Origin: a virus
Direction: 5' to 3' (one strand)
IMG/VR virus record: IMGVR_UViG_3300029848_000008
Length of the DNA: 59,375 nucleotides
Shown here piece by piece: positions 33,379 through 56,495 of the stretch. The translations under genes were made by a program, and so were the position numbers. Under the pieces are notes generated by a model that was not told where the DNA came from, searched no databases, and saw only the letters and a program-made list of their open reading frames with translations. How positions within the stretch are numbered: position 1 is the first letter of the stretch; every line of letters begins with the position of its first letter.

Positions 33379-33406
33379 TTCATAAAAGGGGCTGTTTTTT
33401 TCGCGG
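33379..33406 (-). promoter_or_regulatory. Early-region motif copy 1
   Basis: Minus strand reads CCGCGAAAAAAACAGCCCCTTTTATGAA. Lies ~60 nt upstream of the VRR-NUC start. Confidence 0.5.
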
Positions 33407-33459
33407 ATGAAAAAACAGGGGCTGAAAAATATCAGACCCTGTCGCCAGTTCAGTGGTTT

Positions 33460-33759
33460 TCAGTAAACGTCGTCGTAATCGTCGCCCCAGACGGAGCCGG
33501 TATTTTTGTAAGACGAAATGCCGGAAGCCCAGCTCAGATACTCGGTGGGGCCGAAGACGAAATGGCACTGGTGGCAGAAATAGCACACACCGTCGGAGTC
33601 AGTGACGGTGCCCTTGCCGCCGCAGCGGGGACAGTCGCCCTTCACAAAGGTCTTGGCAAATTCCGCCATGTGTTTCTCGTCAGCCTCTTCGGCTTCGTAG
33701 TCTGTATCGTCATCAGGATCGTAAATATCACTGTAGTCATCATCGTCATACCAGCTCAT
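33460..33759 (-). CDS. Highly acidic zinc-ribbon protein
   Basis: D/E/Y-rich termini (MSWYDDDDYSDIYDPDDDTDYEAEE...GDDYDDVY) flank CPRCGG...CYFCHQC. Confidence 0.6.
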   Translation of the reverse strand: MSWYDDDDYSDIYDPDDDTDYEAEEADEKHMAEFAKTFVKGDCPRCGGKGTVTDSDGVCYFCHQCHFVFGPTEYLSWASGISSYKNTGSVWGDDYDDVY

Positions 33760-33803
33760 AGGGAGACCTCCTGTTTTGGCAGATTTCGAATGCTCGGGTC
33801 TTT

Positions 33804-33832
33804 ATCATAGCACCAGTTCATTCGTTCCGCAA
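33804..33832 (-). promoter_or_regulatory. Sigma70-like promoter
   Basis: Minus strand reads TTGCGG, 17-nt spacer, TG-c-TATGAT. Lies upstream of 33759. Confidence 0.45.
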
Positions 33833-33852
33833 GACAGGACGGCGGCTCCGGC

Positions 33853-34065
33853 CTAATTCGAAGGCTTCTGCTTCGCCAGCGAGGTCAGAATGTTTTTCCA
33901 AAGCTCCCGCCGGTCCTTGCACTCCTTCTCCCGCTGCCCCCGCAGGGTGACGGCCCCGAAGGAAATACTGCCCGCAATGGCGAACAGTCCGGACGCAATC
34001 ATCAGGGTCATGTTCTGGCGAACAATGGCCACGATGAAGGCCGCTAACGAGAATATCCAGCCCAT
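33853..34065 (-). CDS. Small 2-TM membrane protein
   Basis: Start at MGWIFSLAAFIVAIV behind an AAAGGAGAG RBS. Second hydrophobic helix LMIASGLFAIAGSISFGAV. Confidence 0.55.
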   Translation of the reverse strand: MGWIFSLAAFIVAIVRQNMTLMIASGLFAIAGSISFGAVTLRGQREKECKDRRELWKNILTSLAKQKPSN

Positions 34066-34121
34066 CTTTTTTTTCTCTCCTTTGCTGCGATTTTCGGGGG
34101 TAAAAGGGCCTGTGGCCAAAA

Positions 34122-34383
34122 GCCCACTTTGGTGACGCTATTTCTCTATATTTCTTTATTTTTTTTCCACGCATAAATAAAGAAAAAAAGTGGGCAAAGT
34201 GGGCAGAGACCCACAAACCCTTATACATCAACGGTTTGCGGCTGCCCACTTTTGAAATAAAAGTGGGCGAAAACCCACTTTTTTTGGGCTTTTTTCGTCC
34301 GAAGCCGTTTTGGCCGGCTCTCAAATTTGCCCAAAACCCACAAAAAGTGGGCGCGCGGCCACTTTTCCAATACCAAAGTGGGC
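34122..34383. repeat. Iteron-like array of AAGTGGGC/GCCCACTT 8-mers around an AT-rich core (putative replication origin or operator array)
   Basis: Forward copies at 34188, 34197, 34261, 34345, 34376. Reverse copies at 34122, 34244 and (7/8) 34273. GTGGG-N5/6-CCCAC pairs. AT-rich stretch 34141..34190. Confidence 0.6.
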
Positions 34384-34445
34384 AGAAAAAGAAGAGGGAC
34401 TGACCAATGTCAGCCCTCCCTTTTCTACCGAAAATCCGTCTCTTT

Positions 34446-34679
34446 TCAGTCCAGATGTTCCACGGTTTCCTCCGTCAGATTCACCGCATTCTCCGTCAAT
34501 TCCGGGAGCGCCTCCGGGGTGGTGGAGCCGCAGAGCTTCTTCAGGCCGAACACCGCGCCGCCGATTCCAGCGCCGATGCCCAGGCCGATGACTGTCCTGC
34601 GGAACCATTTTTTCTCCTTCAGATTTTCCCATTTTTCCTTGATGGTGGTCTTGGTTTCCTTCATTTCATTGGTTTCCAT
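34446..34679 (-). CDS. Small single-TM protein
   Basis: 77 aa. AAGGAGGA RBS. TM segment TVIGLGIGAGIGGAVFGL. Confidence 0.6.
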   Translation of the reverse strand: METNEMKETKTTIKEKWENLKEKKWFRRTVIGLGIGAGIGGAVFGLKKLCGSTTPEALPELTENAVNLTEETVEHLD

Positions 34680-34717
34680 GATGAATATCCTCCTTCAAAA
34701 TGTGATCCTTTTTCGGA

Positions 34718-34745
34718 TTCATAATAGCGAGTGTTTTTTACGCGG
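34718..34745 (-). promoter_or_regulatory. Early-region motif copy 2
   Basis: Minus strand reads CCGCGTAAAAAACACTCGCTATTATGAA. Overlaps the stop of 34738..35217. Confidence 0.5.
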
Positions 34746-35217
34746 AAAAGTGGGCGTCGTCCCACAGCTGCAAAAGGTGCCTGGACAGGCCCTCTGTCAC
34801 ATGCAGAAGATCCGCTGCTTCTTCCAGCGACTTGCCCTCCTCGCAGAACAGCCGGTGCATAGCAGAGATCAGCTCGGCGCGCTCCTCATCCGGCAGGGCC
34901 TCGAAGCCCCGGGCCGTCAGCTGTACGCCGGACTGAGCCCACGCTTCCTTCAGGGCCAGCACCCGTTCCCTGGCTTCCTTCATGGTGATGCCCTGAGCCT
35001 TGTGGCTGTCGTAGTACAGGCGTACCGCATCATATAGAAGATCGTGGGCGGCCAGATACTTGACACTTGGTCGCTCCACGCAGTAGGCCACGCCTGGCAG
35101 GCCCAGTGCGAAAGCACGTACCGCCGCGTCATCCTTCAGGCGCATGCCAAGGGCCAGCGCCACCTTGCGCACCTCCCGGCTATCCATCAGGGAACCATTG
35201 CGAAGACTGAAATACAT
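34738..35217 (-). CDS. Hypothetical protein with a C-terminal HTH-like segment
   Basis: 159 aa. KSLEEAADLLHVTEGLSRHLLQ. Its 3' end carries another GTGGGCGTCGTCCCAC iteron pair (34750..34765). Confidence 0.5.
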   Translation of the reverse strand: MYFSLRNGSLMDSREVRKVALALGMRLKDDAAVRAFALGLPGVAYCVERPSVKYLAAHDLLYDAVRLYYDSHKAQGITMKEARERVLALKEAWAQSGVQLTARGFEALPDEERAELISAMHRLFCEEGKSLEEAADLLHVTEGLSRHLLQLWDDAHFSA

Positions 35218-35264
35218 GGGAATTCCTCCTTTTTACTGAGCTACAGATAGAATATCAATGAGGT

Positions 35265-35711
35265 TTAGTGCAGATAGTGCTCCTTTTTATAGCGGCAAGT
35301 GACCACCTTGCCGATGCGAGCGTTCCGAATCAGCCGTGCACACATGTCACAGGGAACAGGCCGTGGAATGATCTTTCCATTTTCCCAGCCCGCCAGATAT
35401 AAGGTTGCGCCGATCATGTCCGCCGGGTCAGCATTCAGAATAGCGTTCGCCTCCGCGTGGACGGCCTGACACAGCTCGTACCGCTCGCCGTGAGGAATGT
35501 TCTGCTCCTCTCGAAGACACAGGCCAACGTCCGTACAATTCTGCTCGCCCCTGGCTGAGCCATTATAGCCGGTAGAGATGATGTGGTCATCCTTCACAAT
35601 GACCGCACCGTATTTTCGCCGAAGACAGGTGCTGCGCATGGCTACAGCCAGAGCAATGTTGAAATAGTATTCCTCCTTGGAGGGGCGCTCCTGTGGCTTT
35701 GGGGTACTCAT
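35265..35711 (-). CDS. dCMP deaminase (ComEB-type)
   Basis: HAEANAI and PCDMCARLI zinc motifs, plus TGYNG. ATG at 35711 behind a GAGGTG RBS. Confidence 0.85.
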   Translation of the reverse strand: MSTPKPQERPSKEEYYFNIALAVAMRSTCLRRKYGAVIVKDDHIISTGYNGSARGEQNCTDVGLCLREEQNIPHGERYELCQAVHAEANAILNADPADMIGATLYLAGWENGKIIPRPVPCDMCARLIRNARIGKVVTCRYKKEHYLH

Positions 35712-35716
35712 GATTA

Positions 35717-35884
35717 TCACCTCATTTGAAGAATATCAAAGACATAGCGAACAGCCAGCAGGCTCCAGTACAGCCATACAGCCTTTTCCAGTCCGCCTCC
35801 GGTCTGCTTGAACCGCCTGCGGGCCAGCAGGGCGATCACAACCGTAATAACGAAGAGGATGACTGTCAGCATATTCCGCTCCAT
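35717..35884 (-). CDS. Small 2-TM membrane protein (below the ORF-track size cutoff)
   Basis: Hand translation: MERNMLTVILFVITVVIALLARRRFKQTGGGLEKAVWLYWSLLAVRYVFDILQMR. TGATG coupling with the upstream ORF. Confidence 0.5.
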   Translation of the reverse strand: MERNMLTVILFVITVVIALLARRRFKQTGGGLEKAVWLYWSLLAVRYVFDILQMR

Positions 35885-36135
35885 CAGTCGCCCGCCTTTC
35901 CTGGTCCCTTATAGGAAACCCGTGCAGTATTCAAAGCTGTACTAATATCCTGCATTCGCACCGGCCCTGAATTTTGAAAGCGCTCTTTTCCGTCATTTTC
36001 GTTCAGTCCGGGGGAAGAATCCGCAGGCCCCAGCTTTTGACGATAGAACCAGAGCGCCATAGCCATGCTGGCATCTCGCTTCAGGTTACGACGTTTTTTC
36101 AGAATATGGCCCCGGTAAAAGGTGTAGCCGAACAT
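35884..36135 (-). CDS. Hypothetical basic protein
   Basis: 83-aa ORF tightly packed between its neighbours. Confidence 0.45.
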   Translation of the reverse strand: MFGYTFYRGHILKKRRNLKRDASMAMALWFYRQKLGPADSSPGLNENDGKERFQNSGPVRMQDISTALNTARVSYKGPGKAGD

Positions 36136-36136
36136 A

Positions 36137-36295
36137 CTAATCTCTCGCTTTCTCGTAAGTTATAGGCTTCACCGAGCCGTCGTTCATTGGGGTGGACAGG
36201 CATTCGTCGCAGGGATCGTCCGCCTGATCGACATCCTTGTACTTACAGGTGCAGCAATACAGATCATACCGCACTTCCTTATCATGGGTTTCCAT
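36137..36295 (-). CDS. Small Cys-rich (zinc-ribbon-like) protein (below the ORF-track size cutoff)
   Basis: Hand translation: METHDKEVRYDLYCCTCKYKDVDQADDPCDECLSTPMNDGSVKPITYEKARD. Confidence 0.45.
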   Translation of the reverse strand: METHDKEVRYDLYCCTCKYKDVDQADDPCDECLSTPMNDGSVKPITYEKARD

Positions 36296-36357
36296 TCTGG
36301 TTCACCTCACTTTTCCACTTCTTTCCAGGAAATGTCTGATCGTCAAATGCATACTTT

Positions 36358-36558
36358 TTAGATATTTTCGTTCTCCGTGACGAGTTCAAGTTCATCCTCC
36401 GCATATACACCAAACAAAGCATTGTTGAACTCAACACAATACAGGCCTGGAGTTAAAAACCCAGACCCATATCTGCGAATATCAGTTACAGTTCCAATCT
36501 GCTGATAATTATACCGATCAGGATTAGCCACTAATACCTTGTCGCCAATACTAATCAT
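36358..36558 (-). CDS. Hypothetical small protein
   Basis: 66-aa AT-rich ORF. ATGA overlap with the upstream gene. Confidence 0.5.
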   Translation of the reverse strand: MISIGDKVLVANPDRYNYQQIGTVTDIRRYGSGFLTPGLYCVEFNNALFGVYAEDELELVTENENI

Positions 36559-37241
36559 GCTTTCTCCTTTTCAATAATTAGCTCCGAATAAGGCAAACTC
36601 TCAATCCAGTCGCAGAAGGTATGCCACTCATCCAGCTTGTGATTGCGGCGGGCGGGATAGATGTTGGCCAGCACCTCGTAATTGAGCATCAGCGTCCGGC
36701 GCTGGTTGTAGCTGCTGGGCAGGAGCTGGATCATCTGCCACCAATCGTTCTTTGAACTGGCAAACGAGCCTTCATTAAACCATTGCCGGTGGACGTTCAT
36801 GGTATGGATCACATCTTCCAGTACGCTAATGGCGTCGGGTTCCAGATGCTCGTGGCTGAAGTCCTCCAGCGTGAACTCTTTTTCCGCAATTTTGTGCATG
36901 GTGCTGCACGAGTTCGCCACCGTGCCCACCTTGTAGGTGTCGTACTCCTTCCACCAATATAGGGGCGCAGTCACGTCCAGATAGACGGTAATCATCCGCA
37001 TGAACTTCCGATGGTCGGTGCCGGCGCTGGCGAGGGTTTCCGCCAGATGCAGGTCGTTTTCGCCCAGAACATAGCTCGGATTCCAGCAGCCGGAGGTGCA
37101 TTCATGGCAAAAAAAAGTCCCCTCCTGCTCCGAATGGCATCCGAGGCCGCTGTCGCTCTTCGCCCAGCTGTTCTTTGGGTTCCGCATACCGCGGATGGCG
37201 GGCTCCCAGCCATGAATTTCGACATTTTCAATTTTCAGCAT
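36555..37241 (-). CDS. Divergent ThyX-fold protein lacking the canonical RHR / SxRY motifs
   Basis: AGTDHRKFMRMITVYLDVTAPLYWWKEYDTYKVGTVANSCSTMH aligns by eye with ThyX HGHxxxxEH...APxxxxRQxxRHRxxSxxxxSxRY, but the catalytic residues are replaced. Cys-rich insert CHSEQEGTFFCHECTSGC. Confidence 0.45.
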   Translation of the reverse strand: MLKIENVEIHGWEPAIRGMRNPKNSWAKSDSGLGCHSEQEGTFFCHECTSGCWNPSYVLGENDLHLAETLASAGTDHRKFMRMITVYLDVTAPLYWWKEYDTYKVGTVANSCSTMHKIAEKEFTLEDFSHEHLEPDAISVLEDVIHTMNVHRQWFNEGSFASSKNDWWQMIQLLPSSYNQRRTLMLNYEVLANIYPARRNHKLDEWHTFCDWIESLPYSELIIEKEKA

Positions 37242-37316
37242 CCTACAAACCCTCCTAAAATAGAAAAAGTATTCATAATCTTCTTTTCAAACTCGAAGCG
37301 CTCATTATTGGTCATT

Positions 37317-37583
37317 TCATTTCACGTCAACTATCACAGCCCTTTTTAGACGGCCAGGTTCCATATCAAGCACCGTTACCTCCAGAATATAAGTGGCAAC
37401 AGGAATGGGATAACCCACGTTGACTCCACGATCATAATAGTAGATCCATTTTTCAGGATGCTCCTTACCGTACTGAATGAGCTGCTTATAACAGTCATCG
37501 AAGTTAGTACCATCGATAAAGAAGCCATCATGTTTTTCGCCGAAATCGTACAAGTCTTTGCGGGGGCAAACCTTATTCAGCAT
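37317..37583 (-). CDS. Hypothetical protein
   Basis: 88-aa ORF. Confidence 0.5.
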   Translation of the reverse strand: MLNKVCPRKDLYDFGEKHDGFFIDGTNFDDCYKQLIQYGKEHPEKWIYYYDRGVNVGYPIPVATYILEVTVLDMEPGRLKRAVIVDVK

Positions 37584-37782
37584 GATGCATTTTTTCCTTT
37601 CTGATGTGCGTGCTGTCCTTTCTCCGCTTGTCTATCTGCACGCTCAGCCATTCGTCGCAGTCATTGCAAATATCCACGGTTTGAAATGTGAAGGCGATAG
37701 GGGTCTGCTGAATGCGTAGCTGAAGGGCTTCGCCCTCAGGACACTGCTTTCCACACAGGTCACAGATTTTAATGGTGGCCAT
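37573..37782 (-). CDS. Small zinc-ribbon protein
   Basis: Start at MATIKICDLCGK...CNDCDEW behind a GGGAGGG RBS. Confidence 0.5.
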   Translation of the reverse strand: MATIKICDLCGKQCPEGEALQLRIQQTPIAFTFQTVDICNDCDEWLSVQIDKRRKDSTHIRKEKMHHAE

Positions 37783-37895
37783 CGTCCGTACCCTCCCTTT
37801 CCCGCTGGCAGGCAATCTGTACCTCCCGATCAGCCCATTCAGACATACCGCTCATGTTGTTTCTCTCCTTTTTTCGTTTTTTTTTTTTCAGAATA

Positions 37896-38198
37896 TCAAT
37901 ATTCCCCGGGAAACAGTAGGGTGGTGCTGCTCCCGTAAGCTTCCGTTACGATCCACAGGCAGTCCTCGCCTCCCCAGTGGATGCCATCTGGAAAATTGTA
38001 GCTGGCTATGATGCGCTCATCACCGCTTTGCAGGGCCTGATCGTTCATCTTCCGGTCCTCCTGGCTGATCTCGCCCCAGTCATTGCTGAAATATCTCATC
38101 AGAGAGCTGGCGCAGAAGAGATTGAATGACCTGTTCCCGCGTTGCAGCTCCTCCACTGCAGCGGACGCCAGCAAGGGCCCCATTTGTTTCTGTGTCAT
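37896..38198 (-). CDS. Conserved phage/plasmid small protein, unknown function
   Basis: GGAGGA RBS. C-terminal LWIVTEAYGSSTTLLFPGEY motif. Confidence 0.55.
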   Translation of the reverse strand: MTQKQMGPLLASAAVEELQRGNRSFNLFCASSLMRYFSNDWGEISQEDRKMNDQALQSGDERIIASYNFPDGIHWGGEDCLWIVTEAYGSSTTLLFPGEY

Positions 38199-38355
38199 TT
38201 GACTTATCCTCCAATATCAAGCGTTCAATGGTCTTCCAGCGCCGTCCGCATTCGTGACAGACCCGGTACCGGCGGATGTTACCGTCGGCGTCCTCCCGGC
38301 TTTCGGTTACATAGGTGCGAGCCCCACAGTCGGGGCATTCCCGTAAGGACATCAT
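38080..38355 (-). CDS. NrdR-like zinc-ribbon protein without an ATP-cone
   Basis: MSLRECPDCGARTYVTESREDADGNIRRYRVCHECGRRWKTIER matches the NrdR N-terminal pattern CPxCG...V.DSR...RRRReCxxCGxRFTTxE. Its tail overlaps the next gene by 119 nt. Confidence 0.45.
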   Translation of the reverse strand: MMSLRECPDCGARTYVTESREDADGNIRRYRVCHECGRRWKTIERLILEDKSNDTETNGALAGVRCSGGAATREQVIQSLLRQLSDEIFQQ

Positions 38356-38375
38356 GTTTTCCTCCTATTTTTGGC

Positions 38376-38424
38376 CAATGAAAAAGAGCCCTCGATTTTT
38401 TTCGAGAGCTCCTTGCGTATTTTA
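38376..38424. repeat. ~49-nt direct repeat copy 1 (contains a terminator hairpin)
   Basis: caatgaaaaagagccctcgattttttt cgagagctcctt.. matches 38928..38975 with 2 mismatches and 1 indel. Confidence 0.9.
38380..38411 (-). terminator. Rho-independent terminator after gene 38467..38895
   Basis: Minus strand reads GAGCTCTCGA-A7-TCGAGGGCTC followed by TTTTT. Confidence 0.7.
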
Positions 38425-38466
38425 GGGATGCGCCAATGTTTTCATTCTGCTTCTTTTTACAGCCGG

Positions 38467-38895
38467 TCAATAACCCGGGTTACGTTGCTGCTGAAGGTTC
38501 AGCCGTTGGAGAACCTCGCAAACAATATCATCGCTGCGCCCATATACGGAAAGAGCATTATTAACCATGTGCTTCGCCATGTCTTTGACAATCGCTTCTT
38601 CCCCGGCCTTTCGCGCGGCTTCCACCATCTCACGGGCTTTTTTCTCCAGAATTTCGTCGGAAACAGGCTCTTCCAGAATTACATGGATCTTTTCATACAG
38701 CCTTTTCAGGATTTCTTCCTTAATGAAACGCTCAATCTCCGGCTCTCTTCGGCCTCCCCAGGAGTCCTCCCAACGATTCAGGTCTTTCCAGACCTCCCGC
38801 GCTTTTCTTTGGAGTTCTTCTTCGGAAATGGTCGCGGCAAACAATTTTGCCATTTCCTGGCCAAAGATTTTATTCATTTCGGCGTTGAGTTCCAT
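38467..38895 (-). CDS. Hypothetical helical protein, flanked by the 49-nt repeats
   Basis: Start at MELNAEMNKIF behind a GGGAGG RBS. Confidence 0.55.
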   Translation of the reverse strand: MELNAEMNKIFGQEMAKLFAATISEEELQRKAREVWKDLNRWEDSWGGRREPEIERFIKEEILKRLYEKIHVILEEPVSDEILEKKAREMVEAARKAGEEAIVKDMAKHMVNNALSVYGRSDDIVCEVLQRLNLQQQRNPGY

Positions 38896-38927
38896 CGTTT
38901 TTGCCTCCCGTTTCTTATTCATGCTCC

Positions 38928-38975
38928 CAATGAAAAAGAGCCCTCGATTTTTTCGAGAGCTCCTTCAGTATTTTA
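38928..38975. repeat. ~49-nt direct repeat copy 2 (contains a terminator hairpin)
   Basis: See 38376..38424. Confidence 0.9.
38932..38962 (-). terminator. Rho-independent terminator after hepT
   Basis: Same hairpin and T-run as 38380..38411. Confidence 0.7.
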
Positions 38976-38979
38976 ATGA

Positions 38980-39598: not shown

Positions 39599-39633
39599 AG
39601 GCCTTCCTCCTTCTGGTTCACGGCTTTAGTATA

Positions 39634-40160: not shown

Positions 40161-40171
40161 TCGTCACGGAT

Positions 40172-40399
40172 TCATCTGAAATTCATCGCCGAGTAATACG
40201 AGTAGGTAATACTGGGGTGTCGTTCTTCCGCGGGCATTTCCTCTTCCATTCGGATGGCGTGATGGGGATGTTCGGCTGCATAGTCCCGCATGTGAATATC
40301 AAAGATTTGTTTCACACTGCGGCCTCCTACAGCCAGAAATCCCATCGCCAACAGAATCAGGCAGAGACGCGCCAGAAGCTTTTCCCGTTTTTCCGTCAT
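40172..40399 (-). CDS. Small single-TM protein
   Basis: 75 aa. TM segment LCLILLAMGFLAVGG. Confidence 0.55.
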   Translation of the reverse strand: MTEKREKLLARLCLILLAMGFLAVGGRSVKQIFDIHMRDYAAEHPHHAIRMEEEMPAEERHPSITYSYYSAMNFR

Positions 40400-40404: not shown

Positions 40405-40764
40405 TCAGCCCTTTCTTTTTTCAGGTTTCTCCGAAAAAGGGGCTGCTGATTTCGCGGACGCGATACGGATGAAATATCCCGTGGGTCCGGTGGGGGAAAC
40501 CACGTACTCCGCCCGTACAACCTGCCGTGCCAAAATGAAGCGGTTCAGGCACCGGGCCGCGATAGGCTTCCCCTTGGGCAGACCATCCAGCTCAATCACC
40601 AGCGTATCAGGGTCAGTGATTTCCAGAAGGAAGCACGCTTTTTTCTCCCGGATGGGAAGCTGCTTCAGCAGCTCGCCAAGAGACAGAAACGCAGGCATGG
40701 AGAAGACCCAGCGGGCGTCTCCGTTAGCATATTTTTCCGCCAGATGGGCTCTGAGCATGGTCAT
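40405..40764 (-). CDS. Hypothetical protein
   Basis: Start at MTMLRAHL with an ATGA overlap onto the upstream stop. Confidence 0.5.
   Translation of the reverse strand: MTMLRAHLAEKYANGDARWVFSMPAFLSLGELLKQLPIREKKACFLLEITDPDTLVIELDGLPKGKPIAARCLNRFILARQVVRAEYVVSPTGPTGYFIRIASAKSAAPFSEKPEKRKG
40430..40457 (-). promoter_or_regulatory. Early-region motif, degenerate copy
   Basis: Minus strand reads CCGCGAAATCAGCAGCCCCTTTTTCGGA. Shares CAGCCCCTTT with copy 1. Lies inside the 3' end of 40405..40764. Confidence 0.3.
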
Positions 40765-40997
40765 CCCTTCTTTCCCAATTTCTGCCGCCGCCATTTTTTG
40801 CGGGAATACTGCAGGATGAGTGGGCTTGTCATCCAGCCGTCCCGGGCCGCCTGGGCCCGCCGGTAACGCTCCTGCTTTTCCGCCTCCCGATACTGCCACC
40901 CGGCACATCCAGTCCGGCAGCTGAGACTTCGTTCCCTGCAGCCCTGACAGGTTTGGAAGGAGATAGGCAGCTCATCCGTTGAGATGGTCCGGCTCAT
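40761..40997 (-). CDS. Small Cys-rich basic protein
   Basis: Start at MSRTIS with an ATGA overlap onto the helicase stop. CQGCRERSLSCRTGCAGW. Confidence 0.5.
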   Translation of the reverse strand: MSRTISTDELPISFQTCQGCRERSLSCRTGCAGWQYREAEKQERYRRAQAARDGWMTSPLILQYSRKKWRRQKLGKKG

Positions 40998-44007: not shown

Positions 44008-44277
44008 TCAGTTATGAACCGGCGTACTCTGATGATACAGCCAGTCCGGGTCCACGTCCAGCTGTTTGTTCCAGACCACGGTGTTGTAATCCACGTGGGC
44101 CGTCTCAAACAAAGCCGGATCGTTGGCCAGCTCCCGATAACATGGAAGGCCAAACAGCTCCTTCCTCGCGTTGAAATCCCGAATTTCTCCGTTCCGGAAG
44201 CGTACCCGCAGGGTTCCGTCTCTGGCGCTGAGCACTTCCGCCGCCCTCGGCGTCTTCAGCGGTATTGCGTTTCTCAT
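44008..44277 (-). CDS. DUF2442 domain protein
   Basis: LRVRFRNGEIRDFNARKELF...YNTVVWNKQLDVDPDWLY fits the DUF2442 pattern. Confidence 0.65.
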   Translation of the reverse strand: MRNAIPLKTPRAAEVLSARDGTLRVRFRNGEIRDFNARKELFGLPCYRELANDPALFETAHVDYNTVVWNKQLDVDPDWLYHQSTPVHN

Positions 44278-44298: not shown

Positions 44299-44574
44299 TT
44301 ATTTCCTCTTTTTCAGAGGATCAATCTGAATCAGTTCCCGATGGATGAGGGTCAAATACCAGTTTGCAGCCAATTCATTGTAATGAATCAGCGCCCATTT
44401 GCGGACCAGGCGGGCCTGTCTTCCCGGAAGATAACCTTCCATGATTTCTCCGTTCAGTGTGACCACTGCCTCGTTGCTTCCATACAGCACATGAAAATGG
44501 GGCGTATGATGTCGCTCGCCTTTTTCGTAGTGCATCATGATTACAATCCCATTGAATTCCGATACCACAGGCAT
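44299..44574 (-). CDS. DUF4160 domain protein
   Basis: Start at MPVVSEFNGIVIMMHYEKGERHHTPHFHVLYG behind an AAGGAGGG RBS. Classic DUF4160 N-terminus. Confidence 0.7.
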   Translation of the reverse strand: MPVVSEFNGIVIMMHYEKGERHHTPHFHVLYGSNEAVVTLNGEIMEGYLPGRQARLVRKWALIHYNELAANWYLTLIHRELIQIDPLKKRK

Positions 44575-44590
44575 ATCCCGTGCCCTCCTT

Positions 44591-44619
44591 AGTATAGAAA
44601 ATCCCATTTTCCCTGTCAA
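44591..44619 (-). promoter_or_regulatory. Near-consensus sigma70 promoter driving DUF4160/DUF2442
   Basis: Minus strand reads TTGACA (44619-14), 17-nt spacer, TATACT (44596-91). Confidence 0.7.
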
Positions 44620-44622
44620 GTC

Positions 44623-44639
44623 GGTGCGCAAAGCGCACC
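44623..44639. promoter_or_regulatory. 17-bp perfect palindrome GGTGCGCAAAGCGCACC (operator-like), copy 1
   Basis: Abuts the -35 of the minus-strand promoter. Same element at 44738 and 48962. Confidence 0.6.
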
Positions 44640-44690
44640 CTCCGTAAAACGCATGGTTTTTCACGCGGCATTCGGCGGCTAAACGGGGCG

Positions 44691-44719
44691 TTGACGGTTC
44701 CTCCTTTCTTTGATAGAAT
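44691..44719 (+). promoter_or_regulatory. Near-consensus sigma70 promoter on the plus strand (divergent from 44591..44619)
   Basis: TTGACG (44691-96), 17-nt spacer, TG-a-TAGAAT (44711-19). Confidence 0.7.
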
Positions 44720-44737
44720 CTTGAGCACCATCCCATC

Positions 44738-44754
44738 GGTGCACAAAGCGCACC
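44738..44754. promoter_or_regulatory. Palindrome copy 2 (GGTGCACAAAGCGCACC)
   Basis: One mismatch. Lies ~15-20 nt downstream of the predicted plus-strand start site. Confidence 0.6.
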
Positions 44755-44804
44755 CTCCATAAAAGCGTCCGCCCCCCAGCAGCCGCTTTCTGAAATCAGG
44801 TGCA

Positions 44805-44993
44805 ATGAAAGGAAAAAGCGGAATGAACGAAACGCAACTTTCCAATGTTCAAGTAGGCAAGTCAACGCCCTGGTTAGCCGCCGGTGCCATGATCGCAATC
44901 ACCGGATTGCTGGGATTTGCAATCGCTAAGGATGATCGGTTCCGATTGCGTTACCAGGGTTTCGAATGCACAATAGAGCCTGCTACGCTGTAA
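44805..44993 (+). CDS. Small plus-strand single-TM ORF converging on the polymerase gene
   Basis: 56-62 aa (ATG at 44805 or 44823). TM segment PWLAAGAMIAITGLLGFAIA. Weak RBS. Overlaps the polymerase stop by 11 nt. Confidence 0.4.
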   Translation: MKGKSGMNETQLSNVQVGKSTPWLAAGAMIAITGLLGFAIAKDDRFRLRYQGFECTIEPATL

Positions 44994-50445: not shown

Positions 50446-50466
50446 AAAAACATCACGCTCTCCTTG

Positions 50467-51402: not shown

Positions 51403-51421
51403 TTTTGTATCTCCTTTTTTC

Positions 51422-52021
51422 TCAGTCTAAAGGCATAACCTTGGGCAATTTAAGCATGTAGCCGGTGGGCACGCGGACCACCTTGGCACTGGCAATGTTC
51501 GTCCAGCCGTAGCGGTTGTCCGTATAGCTGCCGTTGATCCCCACCAGATCGTACAGGTCGGCCACGCTGACCAACCCATAATTGGCAATAAGATCGTCCA
51601 TCTGCTGGAGCACGGTTTCTGCCTCGCCCCGGCTGTCCACCACTATGTCATCAAAGGCGTAACCGGTGCGGGCGATGGTCTGGCACGGGCGGCTTCTGGT
51701 TTCCGGCTCGTAATAGGCCCGGTAGTTCACCCGGGACGCGCCACTGGTCGTGGAGCCTGCCGTCCGGCCCTTGCCGAATACCATGTCCGCCACGGAGGTA
51801 ATCATGTCATGCAGGCCCCGGCGGATGCTGGGCACCAGAATATCCCAGATGAGGTAATCCTTTACATCGCCCGCGTCCTCAGACACAAAAATATCAGCGA
51901 ACCGGCGCAGTTCGCTTTTCTTCTGCACGCTGGCCGACCCGCTGATGACCTTTTCCACTTTCTTTTCTTCCTGCATGGCCGCCTCCCGGCTTTTATGGGA
52001 GTTGGAACGGTAATTTTCCAT
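51422..52021 (-). CDS. Conserved hypothetical protein
   Basis: 199 aa. GGAGGAAA RBS. C-terminus VSVADLYDLVGINGSYTDNRYGW. Confidence 0.55.
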   Translation of the reverse strand: MENYRSNSHKSREAAMQEEKKVEKVISGSASVQKKSELRRFADIFVSEDAGDVKDYLIWDILVPSIRRGLHDMITSVADMVFGKGRTAGSTTSGASRVNYRAYYEPETRSRPCQTIARTGYAFDDIVVDSRGEAETVLQQMDDLIANYGLVSVADLYDLVGINGSYTDNRYGWTNIASAKVVRVPTGYMLKLPKVMPLD

Positions 52022-52033
52022 GGGTTTCCTCCG

Positions 52034-52228
52034 TTACTCCGCCACGGGCAGCACTTTGCCCGGCAGCGTGATTTTGCTTTGGGGGCTTAAGCCCATCCTG
52101 CGTTTGTACTGGTAGGCCAGATTGGCCTTGGCCTTCGTCTCGGTGACCGCCACGGTGGAGGCCTTCCACTTCGGGTTCAGGCACTGGTGAAAGGCCATCA
52201 CAGGGCCCTCGTAATCGTAGCGCTGCAT
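52034..52228 (-). CDS. Small hypothetical protein
   Basis: 64 aa. AAGGAGGA RBS. Confidence 0.55.
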   Translation of the reverse strand: MQRYDYEGPVMAFHQCLNPKWKASTVAVTETKAKANLAYQYKRRMGLSPQSKITLPGKVLPVAE

Positions 52229-52240
52229 GGGGTCCTCCTT

Positions 52241-52999
52241 TCAGCGCTGATAGCCGTACTTGGGGGCCACAGCGTAGTCCAGCACCAAACATGGTGTGCC
52301 GTCCGCCGTCAGCTGGGCGTCAAAGCATAGCTCGATCAGGCCTCGATCCGTACACCAGCCCAGACTGTCCCCGACCCCGATGGACGGCAGACCCAGCTCG
52401 TAGTAAAAGTCGTTGAGGGAAATATACATTTCGCTGAGCATGCGGCGGTTCAACTCATTGACCGTCTGCCGCATTTTCTCGATGTCGGATTTGAAATACC
52501 GTCCGGACAGCACGTCATAGCACAGGGTGGAACCCTTGTCCGTCAGAATGACCTCCCGGCTTTCCACTGGGTTTTTGCTCAGCTTATCCCTGGCGACGGC
52601 GTCGTCCACGGCTTCAGCCTTCTTCGGTCCCACCGTTTCCGTCACCTTCTCCCGGTAGTCCTTCAGGGCGGATTCAGACAGGGCGTAGGCTGTGGCCAAA
52701 GCCGCGTTGCGCCGCTGGTTCTCCCCGTGGGCGGCGATCAGGCACACAGTGGAGCCAACGCTCAGCGCCGCCGAGGGTAGGTAACACTTCCATACCGTTT
52801 TCACGGTCTCAAGCGGGGGCAGCTTCTCCACCTCCAGCTCATCCTTTCGCTGCTCCATCAGACGCAGGGCCTTAGGAGTCTTCCACACGGCCAGCCCCAT
52901 AGCGGCGAACATACCGCCGATGCCAAGCCCTGTCAGAATTTCCGGGCTATGCTTGGCAAGGCCCACTTTCAGATGTTTTCCCCATTGGGAAAAGTTCAT
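52241..52999 (-). CDS. 2-TM membrane protein, paralogue 2 of 3
   Basis: ENQRRNAALATAYALSESALKDYREKVTETVG and SLNDFYYELGLPSIGVGDSLGW. Confidence 0.65.
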   Translation of the reverse strand: MNFSQWGKHLKVGLAKHSPEILTGLGIGGMFAAMGLAVWKTPKALRLMEQRKDELEVEKLPPLETVKTVWKCYLPSAALSVGSTVCLIAAHGENQRRNAALATAYALSESALKDYREKVTETVGPKKAEAVDDAVARDKLSKNPVESREVILTDKGSTLCYDVLSGRYFKSDIEKMRQTVNELNRRMLSEMYISLNDFYYELGLPSIGVGDSLGWCTDRGLIELCFDAQLTADGTPCLVLDYAVAPKYGYQR

Positions 53000-53014
53000 G
53001 GTTTTACCCTCCTG

Positions 53015-53362
53015 TCAAATTCGTTCTGTGGCAACGGAAAACAACTCATTTTCGAGTTCCATTGCCACCTTGTACGCTTCCTTGAAAATGTAAATGGAGC
53101 GCTTGCCACGGGATTCGTGGCAGAAACGCTCCATCTTTTCCCGAAAGAGCATCGCCGTTTTCAGAGGCGAACTTTCGGGGTGGAGCATCAGCTCCCGGAA
53201 CATTTCCTCTGCGGCCCAGCGCCTGTCACTGCGGCGGCGGAACTCCCGCGGCCGGTTCCACCATTCGGGCTCTGAGAAGGCCTCCCGGATGTATTCTCCA
53301 GCGGCCTCCAGTGCGTCCTCATAGCTCAGCGTCCAGTGAGCCAAAATTCTTTCATCCATCAT
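53015..53362 (-). CDS. Hypothetical protein
   Basis: 115-aa ORF. GGAGG RBS (the second ATG at 53359 is better spaced). Confidence 0.5.
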   Translation of the reverse strand: MMDERILAHWTLSYEDALEAAGEYIREAFSEPEWWNRPREFRRRSDRRWAAEEMFRELMLHPESSPLKTAMLFREKMERFCHESRGKRSIYIFKEAYKVAMELENELFSVATERI

Positions 53363-53397
53363 TGGCCTCCAATACAGTAAAAAGAAAAGAGGGTTTG

Positions 53398-53556
53398 TTA
53401 TCCCTCTTTGCTCGTCAGTTTTGCGACTGCTTCCGCTACCTTCTTTTCAATTTTGTCATCCTCCTGCTTTCCGCTGACCCAGTTGGAGAGCAGTGTTGCT
53501 CCCATCCCGATTGCGGTTGCGCCGATTCCGAGCCATTTGACCAGTTTGTTATCCAT
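53398..53556 (-). CDS. Small single-TM protein
   Basis: Start at MDNKLVKWLGIGATAIGMGATLLSNWV behind an AAGGAGG RBS. Confidence 0.55.
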   Translation of the reverse strand: MDNKLVKWLGIGATAIGMGATLLSNWVSGKQEDDKIEKKVAEAVAKLTSKEG

Positions 53557-53571
53557 AGCAGTAACCTCCTT

Positions 53572-53599
53572 TTCATAATACTTGCTGCTTTTTTCGCGG
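53572..53599 (-). promoter_or_regulatory. Early-region motif copy 3
   Basis: Minus strand reads CCGCGAAAAAAGCAGCAAGTATTATGAA, immediately before the RBS of 53556. Confidence 0.5.
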
Positions 53600-53609
53600 T
53601 TTTTCTGTT

Positions 53610-54353
53610 TCAGTAATCCAGATAATCCGCCGTGGGGCCGAATGGCAGCTCGATAAAGCAGCACTCCAGCCCGTCGTCCGTATGGGTGACGAAGTGAGAA
53701 AAATCAATCCACTGGTAACCGTAGAAGGCCTCGCCAGCGCCCACGGACCAGCCGGACCGGTCGCCGCCATCCGGCTTGGGCAGCCCCAGCAGCTCCGCCA
53801 GGTCGTTCAGGCAGCAGATTCCGGTGAGGGCATACTGCCGATTCAGGCGGTACTCCGCGTCCAGCACCTCCAGCAGAGGACGGCGGAAATATCCGAAGTG
53901 CTTTTCGTAAAACAGTTCGGGCTCCGTTTCGCAGGCGGGCGGGTCTTCCCACGGGGGACGGACCTCTGCTCGAATGGCCTGCTCGGTCTTCACACCTACC
54001 TTGGCGGCAGTTTTAGCCCGATACTCCCGAAAGGTACGATCCATAAGCAGATAGGCGCTGGCAAGGGCCGCCTGCTGGCGCTTGTCCAGCATCCGAGCGC
54101 CGAAAATACAGCCGACGGTTCCCAACCCCATCAGCCCGGCGGGGAGATAAACCGCCGCCGTTTTGGAAGCTTTTCGCCAAAAATCCCACCGGGAATTTTC
54201 TGACTCTTCACCGCGGCGAATGATCTCGTCCGCCTGACGGGACGCCTTCACCGCCAGCACTGCCGTGCCGCCAACGCCTGCCGCCGCTAGCACAGATAGG
54301 GCTGTTGGAGCCCAGCGCCTGAGAGTTCGTTCAATGGTCTTCATCCAGGGCAT
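53610..54353 (-). CDS. 2-TM membrane protein, paralogue 3 of 3
   Basis: LDKRQQAALASAYLLMDRTFREYRAKTAAKVG and CLNDLAELLGLPKPDGGDRSGW. Confidence 0.65.
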   Translation of the reverse strand: MPWMKTIERTLRRWAPTALSVLAAAGVGGTAVLAVKASRQADEIIRRGEESENSRWDFWRKASKTAAVYLPAGLMGLGTVGCIFGARMLDKRQQAALASAYLLMDRTFREYRAKTAAKVGVKTEQAIRAEVRPPWEDPPACETEPELFYEKHFGYFRRPLLEVLDAEYRLNRQYALTGICCLNDLAELLGLPKPDGGDRSGWSVGAGEAFYGYQWIDFSHFVTHTDDGLECCFIELPFGPTADYLDY

Positions 54354-54558
54354 AGTGTATGATCGCCTCCCGCTGCTTCACTTTGATAACGATTTCCTGC
54401 TGGTTCTGCTCGTCCCGGCCGATATAGGCCTCCAGCTTGTAGCCCTCCGGGTTTTCCATCAGGGCACTTAGAATCGAGTCGTTAGCCTTCTCATTCTTTT
54501 TGCGGAATTTCAGCTCCAGCACGTCCATTTTTCCAAGTAATGCCTTGATAATGTTCAT
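54331..54558 (-). CDS. Small hypothetical protein
   Basis: Start at MNIIKALLGK behind an AGGAGG RBS. Confidence 0.5.
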   Translation of the reverse strand: MNIIKALLGKMDVLELKFRKKNEKANDSILSALMENPEGYKLEAYIGRDEQNQQEIVIKVKQREAIIHYALDEDH

Positions 54559-54582
54559 TTGACTGACCTCCTGATTTTTTGC

Positions 54583-54613
54583 CAAAAAGAGAAGAGAGCC
54601 TGCTTTCAGGCTC
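54583..54613 (-). terminator. Rho-independent terminator
   Basis: Minus strand reads GAGCCTG-aaag-CAGGCTC followed by TCTTCTCTTTTT. Confidence 0.65.
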
Positions 54614-54626
54614 CCGTCCCTTTGAA

Positions 54627-54758
54627 TTACGAAAATCTGTCGTCCACTTTATCGAATAGATGATTGATGATTCGGATCACTACTTTTCCGCTTCGGAAAA
54701 ATGCTACCGTTGCACACACTCCCAAAAAGCCGAAAAAGATTGTTCCCAAAAACGCCAT
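54627..54758 (-). CDS. 43-aa single-TM peptide (below the ORF-track size cutoff)
   Basis: Hand translation: MAFLGTIFFGFLGVCATVAFFRSGKVVIRIINHLFDKVDDRFS. AAAGGAGGAAAAG RBS, with a motif copy upstream and a terminator downstream. Confidence 0.55.
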   Translation of the reverse strand: MAFLGTIFFGFLGVCATVAFFRSGKVVIRIINHLFDKVDDRFS

Positions 54759-54783
54759 TGTCTTTTCCTCCTTTATGCCAGCA

Positions 54784-54811
54784 AGTTTTCGCCTTCATAA
54801 AGGAAACGGTT
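54784..54811 (-). promoter_or_regulatory. Early-region motif copy 4
   Basis: Minus strand reads CCGCGAAAAAAACCGTTTCCTTTATGAA. Confidence 0.5.
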
Positions 54812-54875
54812 TTTTTCGCGGATGAATTTGGTCCGAAGCCTTCAATGAATGACAGGGCAAAAAAAGAAAAGAGTC

Positions 54876-55091
54876 TTATTCAGACTCTTCCTCTTCCTCT
54901 GTTTGGACCAGCTTTCCCGTTTGAATCCACTTTTTCGTCATCTGCCATATCATACATGCATACTCGTTTATGTATTCATTCTCCTCGCCGCTTCTCTCGC
55001 TTACCAGCAAAATTGCCAATGCCGCCAGATTAAAGGGCAGCGTGAGCAGATTGGCCACAACCAGTACCAGAACTCTGAGCAGTTTTTTCAT
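54876..55091 (-). CDS. Small membrane protein with an acidic tail
   Basis: Start at MKKLLRVLVLVVANLLTLPFNLAALAILLV behind a GAAGGAGGAA RBS. Confidence 0.6.
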   Translation of the reverse strand: MKKLLRVLVLVVANLLTLPFNLAALAILLVSERSGEENEYINEYACMIWQMTKKWIQTGKLVQTEEEEESE

Positions 55092-55124
55092 ATTGTATTC
55101 CTCCTTCAAATTTCGGGTTTCCTG

Positions 55125-55152
55125 TCCATAATATCTGCTGTTTTTTTCGCGG
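55125..55152 (-). promoter_or_regulatory. Early-region motif copy 5
   Basis: Minus strand reads CCGCGAAAAAAACAGCAGATATTATGGA. Confidence 0.5.
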
Positions 55153-55198
55153 AAAAGAAAACAGCCCTTATTTTTTGGACTGTTTCCAGTGATTGGAG

Positions 55199-55585
55199 TT
55201 ATTTCAATACATTCATTTCTCTCAAGATGTTTCCGATTCTTTCACCGGCTTGCCGTCGTTGATCCAATTCAATTTTCTGATGATTGCTCAGCTTCTTGGA
55301 AAGCTCATAGTACGCACCCAATGATGGATCGTATACAAATCCGGTCTTGATGTGTTCTTGCCTGCGCAGATTTGCCCGCACGACGGTTCCCTTCCAAATC
55401 GGTTTGATTACCCATTTGCCGAGAAGCGCCGCGCTGCTTGTCGCCACAGGGACCAGCACGACAATCATTTCCTTATTCTGGTTGATCCACTGCATCGCAC
55501 TTTTTGCTTTTTCAGAAGTCTTGCGTTTCAGTTTTTCCCATTTGGTTTCCACCTTGCATCCGTTTACATAGAGAATCTTGCTCAT
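55199..55585 (-). CDS. Single-TM protein
   Basis: 128 aa. TM segment MIVVLVPVATSSAALLG. CAGGAGG RBS. Confidence 0.6.
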   Translation of the reverse strand: MSKILYVNGCKVETKWEKLKRKTSEKAKSAMQWINQNKEMIVVLVPVATSSAALLGKWVIKPIWKGTVVRANLRRQEHIKTGFVYDPSLGAYYELSKKLSNHQKIELDQRRQAGERIGNILREMNVLK

Positions 55586-55612
55586 TTTTGATACCTCCTG
55601 CAGTTGTTTCTC

Positions 55613-55640
55613 TCCATGATATAGCCAGCTTTTCTCGCGG
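55613..55640 (-). promoter_or_regulatory. Early-region motif copy 6 (variant)
   Basis: Minus strand reads CCGCGAGAAAAGCTGGCTATATCATGGA. Confidence 0.4.
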
Positions 55641-55642
55641 CT

Positions 55643-56002
55643 TCAGATCTCCCGGCGGTCGAAGACCGTTTCCCAGCGGGCCTTGGGTAAGGGTTTCATC
55701 TTCAGCGCCCACATCATCTGGCGGACGGTCACAGTGGGGTAAAGGCCATCCGACGCCGGAGCCGCCCGTTTGGCAAAATATCCGGGAAAGGCGGGATGGG
55801 TGTACAGCGGAACCGTCAGCCAGGGGTCAATTTCGCCCCACCAGGTATGGCGGGTGGCCGGGTCCCAGCGCTGCTGGATCACCGCCAGCCCCTTTTCTTC
55901 CGTCCGAAACAGGGTGCAGCGCCGGTAGACCGGGTGGGCACACTCGTAGGTTTCGCCGTACAGTGTGCCGTAAAAGGCCGGTTTTTTGTAATGATAGCGC
56001 AT
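55643..56002 (-). CDS. Conserved hypothetical protein
   Basis: 119 aa. YECAHPVYRRCTLF...VTVRQMMWALKMKPLPKARWETVFDR. No obvious SD sequence. Confidence 0.5.
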   Translation of the reverse strand: MRYHYKKPAFYGTLYGETYECAHPVYRRCTLFRTEEKGLAVIQQRWDPATRHTWWGEIDPWLTVPLYTHPAFPGYFAKRAAPASDGLYPTVTVRQMMWALKMKPLPKARWETVFDRREI

Positions 56003-56048
56003 TTCGAAAACGAAAAGGGATTGTTTTTCGCAATCCCCTTTGATTGGT

Positions 56049-56441
56049 TCACCCTTTCACCGTAGGCTTGAAGAATTTGGTCAATCCCTGAAAGGTTTTG
56101 GACGTGAACGAACCTGTCTCCTCGAACTGGAGGCCCCGCTTCATCCACACGGCATAGAAGCTGAGAGGCAGCACAATGCCCAGCGCCTGCAGGCCGTACC
56201 CCACCCAGCGGTCGATGCGGGCGGAACGAAGCTCCTTCTCCGCAATCTGTTCCTTGGCGAAATTATCGTCCTGAACCTTGCGAAGCTCGGTCTCGTTCTT
56301 ATCCTCGTCGATCCTGAGCCGGTACAGCTTGCAAAGGCTGTCCACCGCCGCTTCCCGGTCCTTGCCCTGGGGAAGGGAGTCCAGTTCCTTCAGAGTGGCT
56401 TCGATCTGTTCCGTCAATAGCTTTCTGGTTTGATCTTCCAT
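56049..56441 (-). CDS. Coiled-coil protein with a C-terminal TM
   Basis: Start at MEDQTRK behind an AAAGGAGGAGAAAG RBS. TM segment GYGLQALGIVLPLSFYAVWM. Confidence 0.6.
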   Translation of the reverse strand: MEDQTRKLLTEQIEATLKELDSLPQGKDREAAVDSLCKLYRLRIDEDKNETELRKVQDDNFAKEQIAEKELRSARIDRWVGYGLQALGIVLPLSFYAVWMKRGLQFEETGSFTSKTFQGLTKFFKPTVKG

Positions 56442-56467
56442 ATCTTTCTCCTCCTTTGGAATGGTTT

Positions 56468-56495
56468 TCCGTAAAAGGCGCGGATTTTTTCGCGC
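56468..56495 (-). promoter_or_regulatory. Early-region motif copy 7 (variant)
   Basis: Minus strand reads GCGCGAAAAAATCCGCGCCTTTTACGGA. Confidence 0.4.

Follow-up and report, generated by a model that had tools for sequence, protein, structure and literature searches.

Promoters dedicated to phage-encoded RNA polymerases (RNAPs) are a known kind of element, and several of those described are read by enzymes of the two-barrel type. Late promoters of the phiKZ non-virion RNAP have the form T(-3)ATG(+1) and those of the AR9 non-virion RNAP the form A(-11)ACA-N6-T-A/G(+1) (PMC7598289); for YonO of SPbeta, the study left the promoter sequence undefined (PMC5467207). Here we analyse IMG/VR virus record IMGVR_UViG_3300029848_000008 over its full length of 59,375 nucleotides (nt; hereafter the window), which is a temperate relative of Faecalibacterium phage FP_oengus and carries ten copies of a bipartite 28-nt motif on its minus strand. 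The motif is almost certainly a promoter, and we lean towards the view that it is read by the phage's own two-barrel polymerase, which bears helix-turn-helix (HTH) motifs, with initiation at the conserved G that follows an AT-rich hexamer.

Numbered so that CGCG occupies positions -3 to 0, the motif continues with an A/T-rich run (1-7), CA (8-9), a variable block (10-14), the AT-rich hexamer (15-20) and G21, R22 and A23, giving the architecture C(G/A)C(G/A)-W7-CA-N5-T(A/T)T(A/T)AT-G. The resemblance to phiKZ lies in a phage two-barrel polymerase, a start at the G of TATG and the lack of -35 and -10 elements, TATG standing at positions 18-21 in seven of the ten window copies; unlike the system proposed here, the phiKZ enzyme is multisubunit (split beta/beta'), has no HTH fusions and serves late genes of a jumbo phage from a promoter without an upstream block. 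With AR9 the motif shares an ACA block, a fixed spacer, a T followed by a purine start and a non-canonical phage two-barrel reader, but the window ACA lies about 3 nt further upstream (-14..-12) and the AR9 enzyme reads the template strand of uracil DNA via a separate specificity subunit. The virion-delivered single-chain two-barrel phage polymerases are comparable in that the motif stands upstream of pre-early or early units and the enzyme is proposed to travel in the virion; they differ in that the window protein has no detectable sequence similarity to them, no tape-measure fusion, three HTH motifs and one promoter class instead of two. YonO is likewise a single-chain QDE-1-like DNA-dependent RNAP of a temperate Firmicutes phage, and its start region has TCATTTATGAGGG, similar to the 3' half of the motif, whereas it lacks HTH extensions, uses one late promoter and resembles the window protein below the level of tblastn detection. 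The layout recalls that of T7, T3 and SP6 (a promoter of ~25 base pairs (bp), an upstream recognition block, an AT-rich melting block extending to -1, a G start, a purine-rich transcript and several terminator-insulated promoters), although those polymerases have a right-hand Pol I-like fold and recognise DNA through a specificity loop and an AT-rich recognition loop, not through HTHs.

The copies were scored with a position weight matrix built from 209 sites of other phages, from which the window and its near-identical contig were left out. At a threshold of 5 bits the window yielded ten matches, which score 8.9 to 43.6 bits and are confined to the minus strand of the 33.4-57.0 kb interval, against a mean of 0.07 matches in 200 first-order Markov random sequences, whose best score was 14.7; a simple pattern gave nine matches in the window against 2.7 expected. 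This excess answers the call, made in an earlier sequence-only reading of the window, for a significance value, and it agrees with the statement made there that the structural half is free of copies. That reading had listed eight copies with a constant 17-nt spacing from CGCG to the hexamer; all eight are present with that spacing on the minus strand, one of them starting at 54821 and not at 54811, and the set was incomplete, since 44641..44668 and the degenerate 56928..56955 belong to it. A 'weaker relative' suggested for the ThyX-like gene (37272..37299) has ATTATGAA only, without CGCG and CA at the proper spacing, scores below the matrix threshold and is not a member.

Read along the minus strand, copy 1 (56928..56955; CCGCGTATTCTGCAGCCCCTCTTATGGC; 8.9 bits) keeps the spacing with its A-tract replaced, begins 5 nt past the stop codon of 56959..57393 and precedes an excisionase-like HTH_17 gene (56564..56902). 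Copy 2 (56468..56495; GCGCGAAAAAATCCGCGCCTTTTACGGA; 25.3 bits) has a terminator upstream (56556..56573) and precedes 56049..56441, which encodes 130 amino acids (aa), its conserved G at 56470 lying 29 nt 5' of the ATG, and copy 3 (55613..55640; CCGCGAGAAAAGCTGGCTATATCATGGA; 14.1 bits) starts 2 nt past the stop codon of 55643..56002 and precedes 55199..55585 (128 aa). A T-run and hairpin lie upstream of copy 4 (55125..55152; CCGCGAAAAAAACAGCAGATATTATGGA; 30.5 bits), which precedes a membrane-like 71-aa product (54876..55091). Copy 5 (54794..54821; CCGCGAAAAAAACCGTTTCCTTTATGAA; 30.1 bits), ahead of 54627..54758 (43 aa), is flanked by terminators at 54867..54891 upstream and 54594..54615 downstream, and the unit headed by copy 6 (53572..53599; CCGCGAAAAAAGCAGCAAGTATTATGAA; 31.6 bits), with 53398..53556 (52 aa), ends in a terminator at 53386..53409. 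Copy 7 (44641..44668; CCGCGTGAAAAACCATGCGTTTTACGGA; 14.4 bits), one of the two additions, has a perfect hairpin after it and, beyond that, the canonical sigma-A promoter of a DUF4160 gene. Copy 8 (40430..40457; CCGCGAAATCAGCAGCCCCTTTTTCGGA; 17.3 bits), with a degenerate A-tract, sits inside the 3' end of open reading frame (ORF) 40405..40908 and precedes 40172..40399, and copy 9 (34718..34745; CCGCGTAAAAAACACTCGCTATTATGAA; 21.2 bits) contains the TAA stop of ORF 34738..35217 and precedes 34446..34679.

Copy 10 (33379..33406; CCGCGAAAAAAACAGCCCCTTTTATGAA) is the best match, at 43.6 bits, and heads an operon of an endonuclease-like gene (33029..33319), an exonuclease (32497..33057), the polymerase (29802..32504) and a small conserved gene, which continues over a cos-like region into terminase and structural genes. 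Directly after it, a leader hairpin and T-run on the minus strand (33342..33377; AGAAGG...CCTTCT, then CTTTTCTATTT), read from the sequence, could possibly act as an attenuator of the polymerase/late transcript.

Each window copy has a Shine-Dalgarno (SD) sequence and start codon 18-69 nt downstream of its conserved G. Three copies (56955, 55640 and 53599) lie 2-12 nt past the stop codon of the gene before, and four others come after intrinsic-terminator-like hairpins; the proximity to gene starts and the overlap with preceding stops that had been reported earlier thus hold, with the copy at 34745 containing a stop and that at 40457 overlapping an ORF end. The 53-57 kb region consists of short units separated by hairpin/T-run terminators. 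The late or left arms of four genomes (the window, Circum, OhMyWard and P118) proved free of motif copies when searched, and no separate late promoter class was identified there. The conserved blocks CGCG, A/T run, CA and TTTATG are not mutually complementary and N5 varies without pairing partners, so the motif does not behave as a hairpin promoter of the N4 type.

The search of related phages proposed in the sequence-only reading returned the same motif, at the head of early transcription units, from FP_oengus, gut viral contigs, Clostridia prophages and lytic phages of two phyla. FP_oengus has CGCGAAAAAtnCAnnnnnCTTTATGGA in at least 12 copies on the coding strand. An exact-pattern scan of IMG/VR gave at least 120 loci, and a relaxed search of those loci gave 300 sites, all 300 restricted to one strand within their locus; these sites have a T-rich flank upstream, and their positions 21-30 are nearly all purine. 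When bacterial genomes were scanned at one genome per species, 79 of the 120 pattern loci listed were Clostridia prophages of the FP_oengus-like family (Lachnospiraceae, Oscillospiraceae, Faecalibacterium, Clostridium leptum and others), and 40 of the 120, with no protein of that family, had one isolated match each. Arthrobacter phage Circum carries CGCGTAAATTACAnnnnnTATAATGA, and Gordonia phage OhMyWard, Streptomyces phage OlympicHelado and the oral phage D_HF5_2C carry CGCAnnnATTACAnnnnnTATAATGA; Rhodococcus phage ReqiPepy6 has 15 copies. Among Lactococcus phages, P118 has eight copies of TTTTACAnnnnnTATAATGA and 1706 at least 11 of CRCAwGTTTTACAnnnnCTATAGTAGAAAG, the two being summarised together as TTTTACAnnnnnTATAAT/TATAGT. 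Because the hosts belong to two phyla and extend in G+C content from the low of Lactococcus to the high of Streptomyces, a host-specific factor is unlikely and the phage itself should encode the reader.

Two P118 segments (18642..18732 and 23168..23258) and one in FP_oengus (2490..2635) consist only of the motif, ~60-110 nt and a terminator, an arrangement like that of promoter-driven small RNAs. Between the two P118 copies, an internal hairpin has changed in both arms so that pairing is kept (TGCA...TGCA in one, CGCA...TGCG in the other).

The position of the start is constrained by tRNA-like genes fused to the motif in relatives, the window itself having no tRNA gene. One FP_oengus copy lies between a terminator and a T-run, and all that these enclose besides it is a tRNA-like gene (2936..3005; 47.9 bits with Rfam tRNA) that starts at position 23. 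Infernal confirms such a gene at nine viral loci (46-52 bits, gathering score 29), starting at position 22-23 in eight of them and at 26 in one, and at the loci read directly (FP_oengus and several from IMG/VR) it has a terminator upstream and a T-run downstream. Transcription should therefore begin at or before position 22, with G21 the obvious candidate, because a sigma-70 start (~27) would fall inside the tRNA acceptor stem. In the P118 small RNA the terminator stem forms only with G21-G25 included, which weakly supports a 5' end at G21 (z about -1.9). Further motif-fused tRNA-like genes, in several sequence variants, occur at loci L009 (5317..5386), L018 (4211..4280), L021 (11232..11302), L084 (154..222) and others; ARAGORN labels the gene 'tRNA-???' with a two-base anticodon, implying a 6-nt anticodon loop, and its product may draw off tRNA-targeting defences as a decoy or decode in an unusual way.

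Examined as a -10 element, the hexamer has T at its sixth position in 99% of cases, but A at its second in only 4 of the 10 window copies and 21% of 238 lineage sites, so that 79% of the latter are without the essential -11 A. A sigma-70 consensus scan reports none of the ten copies: there is no -35 element, the sequence upstream of CGCG is T-rich and nothing more, and positions 12-13 are C/T, not TG. In actinophages, positions 21-24 are GAGA and 25-28 CCCC, a poor start region. The non-sigma-70 architecture recognised in the sequence-only reading is thus borne out, whereas its suggestion that T(A/T)TTAT acts as a -10 with a start 6-8 nt downstream finds no support in the tRNA-like genes of relatives, which begin 2-3 nt after the hexamer.

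The proposed reader is a single-chain two-barrel RNAP of 900 aa, encoded at 29802..32504 on the minus strand and matching phrog_4291 over its full length (1222 bits). Its Pfam RdRP match (E 2.9e-4, 20.1 bits) is under the 23.8-bit cut-off, and a sequence search of the PDB with the protein gave no significant match. The catalytic DFDGD loop (residues 511-515, within LSGADFDGD) is invariant in 52 homologues and in nine lineages, and the AlphaFold2 model (predicted local distance difference test score 75, predicted template-modelling score 0.62) finds QDE-1 as its best Foldseek match (E 5.6e-10), followed by RDR2 and then by weak RNAP beta' matches. A tandem HTH at the N-terminus (32160..32354, minus strand; HTH1 ~51-72, HTH2 ~94-115) matches Sigma70_r4_2, Sigma70_r4 and HTH_Tnp_1, and the predicted structure of this region resembles the multi-HTH binders Cbp1, Tfx and Pax paired domains. 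A third motif, HTH3, lies at the C-terminus (29811..29876, minus strand; residues ~877-898), matches GerE (2.2e-9), HTH_23 and HTH_38, and is GerE/LuxR- and sigma-region-4-like; its xSTV/L helix is conserved in all lineages. The family comprises at least 8000 clusters at 90% identity. The phages considered here make up the 'supercluster' of Koert et al., whose signature gene is the HTH-bearing polymerase-like protein and whose paper mentions no promoter (bioRxiv 10.1101/842583).

Several observations tie this protein to the motif. A polymerase homologue is present in every lineage checked, the motif was found in all nine polymerase-encoding lineages examined, which belong to two phyla, and a polymerase gene occurs within the short stretch examined in 66 of the 120 motif-found viral loci listed. 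The motif stands directly before the endonuclease gene in FP_oengus (27684), Circum (44408), OhMyWard (44901) and ReqiPepy6 (45610), and a few genes further upstream of the nuclease-polymerase block in P118 and 1706; the copy ahead of the polymerase operon, at 33406 in the window, is accordingly real and, with that displacement, kept in all lineages checked. The recognition helix of HTH2 reads ES[ST]xR in the eight lineages with C(G/A)C(G/A) at -3..0 and PGSVT in P118, which has TTTA there. The HTH modules of the polymerase, already named as a possible reader from the sequence alone, are the best-supported candidate, being present in all motif-bearing lineages checked. The polymerase homologue of phage 1706, orf75, was given the GenBank product name 'structural protein' by its depositors, a label echoed in the ReqiPepy6 gp106 record, and the enzyme would probably be a virion component that is injected. 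A second virion-type polymerase domain, as in P23-45, was sought in the 2076-aa tape measure protein, which gave only a TMP_3 match.

We propose that the polymerase would bind the upstream half of the motif (CGCG, A/T run and CA; about -24 to -12) as duplex DNA via its built-in HTH motifs, melt the AT-rich hexamer just upstream of the start and initiate at G21, the first stretch to be transcribed being rich in purines. Each copy heads a short transcription unit, many of these units closing with a hairpin and T-run, and the copy at 33406 would drive the nuclease-polymerase operon and, across the cos-like region, the late genes; as this operon abuts a cos-like hairpin and then a small terminase-like gene, late genes are perhaps reached by read-through after circularisation. 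On entry, the early units with a motif at their head would be transcribed by an injected virion polymerase, in the manner of N4, crAss-like phages and P23-45, and early genes would be independent of the host sigma factor because the polymerase is probably virion-carried. In a lysogen the lytic genes would stay silent, being headed by promoters that the host enzyme does not recognise, a design that the small number of host-type promoters fits. The identity of the reading protein, the assignment of individual HTHs to individual blocks and delivery in the virion are what we infer from these comparisons. The wider picture of a host-independent module, in which a virion-delivered polymerase uses its own HTHs instead of sigma on a bipartite promoter of ~27 bp with a G start, shared from Lactococcus and Clostridia to Streptomyces, is put forward tentatively, at slightly less than even confidence.

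The most serious competing explanation is that host RNAP with sigma-A uses the hexamer as its -10, CGCG, the A-tract and CA forming the site of a phage activator or sigma appropriator, possibly the HTHs of the polymerase-like protein itself. The host enzyme reads the early genes of many phages, the conserved upstream block sits where a substitute for the -35 could act, and a perfect TATAAT followed by G-purine occurs in the Arthrobacter, Gordonia, Streptomyces, Rhodococcus, Lactococcus P118 and oral relatives. The arrangement recalls T4 middle promoters, in which a phage-specific block (the MotA box) replaces the -35 upstream of a TATAAT-like hexamer; unlike these, the motif has a start-site limit and a missing -11 A that do not suit a sigma-70 -10, and no MotA or AsiA equivalent was found. 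The T at the second hexamer position in most lineage sites, the absence of -35 and TG elements, tRNA-like genes too close to the hexamer for a start ~7 nt downstream and CCCC at the expected start region in actinophages all speak against sigma-A, and the only activator candidate conserved across the group is the polymerase; we regard this explanation as unlikely. We rate still lower the idea that the 144-aa product of 56959..57393 (minus strand; gp03, phrog_11237, a family label without a function), the first protein from an operator-controlled promoter, brings host RNAP to the motif, either generally or as a bootstrap in temperate members. Its gene ends 5 nt before the first window copy and likewise lies just ahead of the first one in FP_oengus, 24 temperate relatives retain it, next to the integrase, and it would explain how an induced prophage starts. 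The product matches no Pfam family (E up to 0.01) or NCBIfam family (E up to 0.1), and no sigma, ArpU, RinA or HTH model; its homologues are confined to temperate relatives, and a jackhmmer search (E up to 10) of the complete Circum, OhMyWard and P118 genomes, where the same motif is present, found none. The earlier designation of this product as a sigma/ArpU-like reader is therefore not supported, and the start-site geometry speaks against any sigma holoenzyme.

That the motif is an operator or another protein-binding site (for repression, partition, replication or packaging) and not a promoter appears very improbable. A repeated, conserved bipartite site in a phage encoding several DNA-binding proteins might suggest such a role, but the motif is non-palindromic, confined to the coding strand and always followed, at the set distance, by an SD and start codon or, directly, by a small RNA gene; often it is the only possible promoter of a unit enclosed by two terminators, and a separate palindromic operator exists. 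These strict rules of strand and position, with the stand-alone motif-RNA-terminator units, likewise make the plain regulator-binding site once entertained as an alternative unlikely.

Several points count against recognition by the phage polymerase with a start at G21. The start is placed there from tRNA-like gene boundaries and by analogy, and the perfect TATAAT with G-purine in actinophage, Lactococcus and oral relatives equals the bacterial -10 plus discriminator consensus, so that host sigma-A may be involved in non-Clostridial relatives. Co-occurrence by itself does not single out the polymerase, because these phages have other genes in common too, and the covariation of HTH2 with CGCR is suggestive, as it reflects one evolutionary change. 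The evidence for a virion location consists of a GenBank product name, and SPbeta YonO, the sole characterised relative, has no HTH extensions and transcribes late, not early, genes. Because the polymerase gene lies behind the same motif, an induced prophage needs a host-dependent route to its first polymerase, and none was identified; the temperate-only gp02 and gp03 are, speculatively, candidates for this bootstrap step.

The search for other factors and for host-type promoters yielded little. Not even close relatives have a homologue of the excisionase-like HTH protein (56564..56902), and none of 20 further early ORFs searched for sigma or regulator families gave a match. Convincing host-type promoters in the window are few, namely those of the integrase (58043..58071) and of the first operon and two in a moron region at ~44.3-45.0 kb. 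The first-operon promoter (TTGATT-17-TATTCT; 57646..57681, minus strand), which is not a copy of the motif, precedes 57372..57623 and 56959..57393, and a perfect 14-bp palindrome, CTATTCTAGAATAG, overlaps its -10 at 57646..57659 as the sole copy in the window. The palindrome is likely a repressor operator and the promoter a repressor-controlled entry point; no repressor gene for the putative operator was identified. In FP_oengus and several IMG/VR relatives the same palindrome directly follows the tRNA-like gene and precedes a motif copy. In the moron region, a sigma-A promoter (TTGACA-17-TATACT; 44619..44591, minus strand) precedes the DUF4160 gene, and a second, with TG (TTGACG-17-TAGAAT; 44691..44719, plus strand), diverges from it. 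The moron-like island (44299..44993) comprises the DUF4160 gene (44299..44574), followed by an 89-aa ORF (44008..44277); ORF 44805..44993 (plus strand; 62 aa, membrane-like) is among very few plausible plus-strand ORFs, and a segment, TTTTAYGGAGGGTGCGCTTTGYGCACCGA, is duplicated at ~44775 and ~44645.

The YonO start was narrowed on SPbeta to the primer-bracketed segment, its published coordinate being 2225998 in the 168 genome. The 191-nt segment between the start-mapping primers contains TCATTTATGAGGG, and the extension product would measure 108 nt if its G were the start. On the minus strand of NC_001884, the 1.7 kb without annotation that separate yonN from yonK hold two copies of TAATnnTCATTTATGA(A/G)GGT at a distance of 157 nt (G at 60595 and at 60438). 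The second copy falls inside the primer-bracketed segment and is a candidate for the core promoter of YonO.

The window begins and ends with the same 99 bases (1..99 = 59277..59375), an overlap that spans the 3' end of the integrase gene, and because this terminal overlap is exact the contig represents a circular genome of ~59,276 bp. All genes are on the minus strand except the tyrosine integrase (58104..59351, plus strand). FP_oengus is the nearest described phage, being syntenic and having an RNA-polymerase-like protein 55% identical to that of the window; megablast of the window DNA polymerase gene against known phages gave no match, and relatives came via protein search. The early region (53610..54353 in the window; gp15, gp18 and gp22 in FP_oengus) holds many very small membrane-like proteins and DUF6353 paralogues, with one promoter each, and small membrane protein arrays of a similar kind have been noted in Arthrobacter clusters AM/AU and ReqiPepy6 (PMC5513430). 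Within a 400-nt gap (29141..29540), a hairpin, AAAATTCTCCGGGGGTAGGTTTTT, at ~29350..29400 on the minus strand resembles the genomes of Circum (CCCCAAAAAATCCCCGGGGGAAT), OhMyWard and P118 at their left ends, and an upstream GGAGGGGGG...CCCCCTCC hairpin with ATCGCGC is common to the window and FP_oengus 31660..31720; this gap between the polymerase operon and the small-terminase-like gene is, on the strength of these features, probably the cos/packaging region.

Within the accessible literature, which did not include the genome papers of phages 1706 and ReqiPepy6, the promoter represented by this motif is described nowhere, and that literature likewise yielded no defined promoter consensus for single-chain two-barrel (YonO/QDE-1-like) polymerases. 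If our interpretation is correct, the motif would give the family of YonO-like polymerases its first defined promoter, and a concrete and testable one. The family is extremely common in gut viromes, FP_oengus-like phages reportedly occurring in up to 40% of human virome samples, and is also common in the SEA-PHAGES actinophage collections. The polymerase and its promoter would offer a compact orthogonal pair for synthetic biology in Gram-positive bacteria and anaerobes, and would show a minimal RNAP recognising promoters by fused HTH domains in place of a sigma factor. For the phages themselves, the system would explain the silence of lytic genes in lysogens of these temperate members and the ability of a single lineage to work in hosts of two phyla, and the portability of the module could explain how the lineage has crossed between bacterial phyla.

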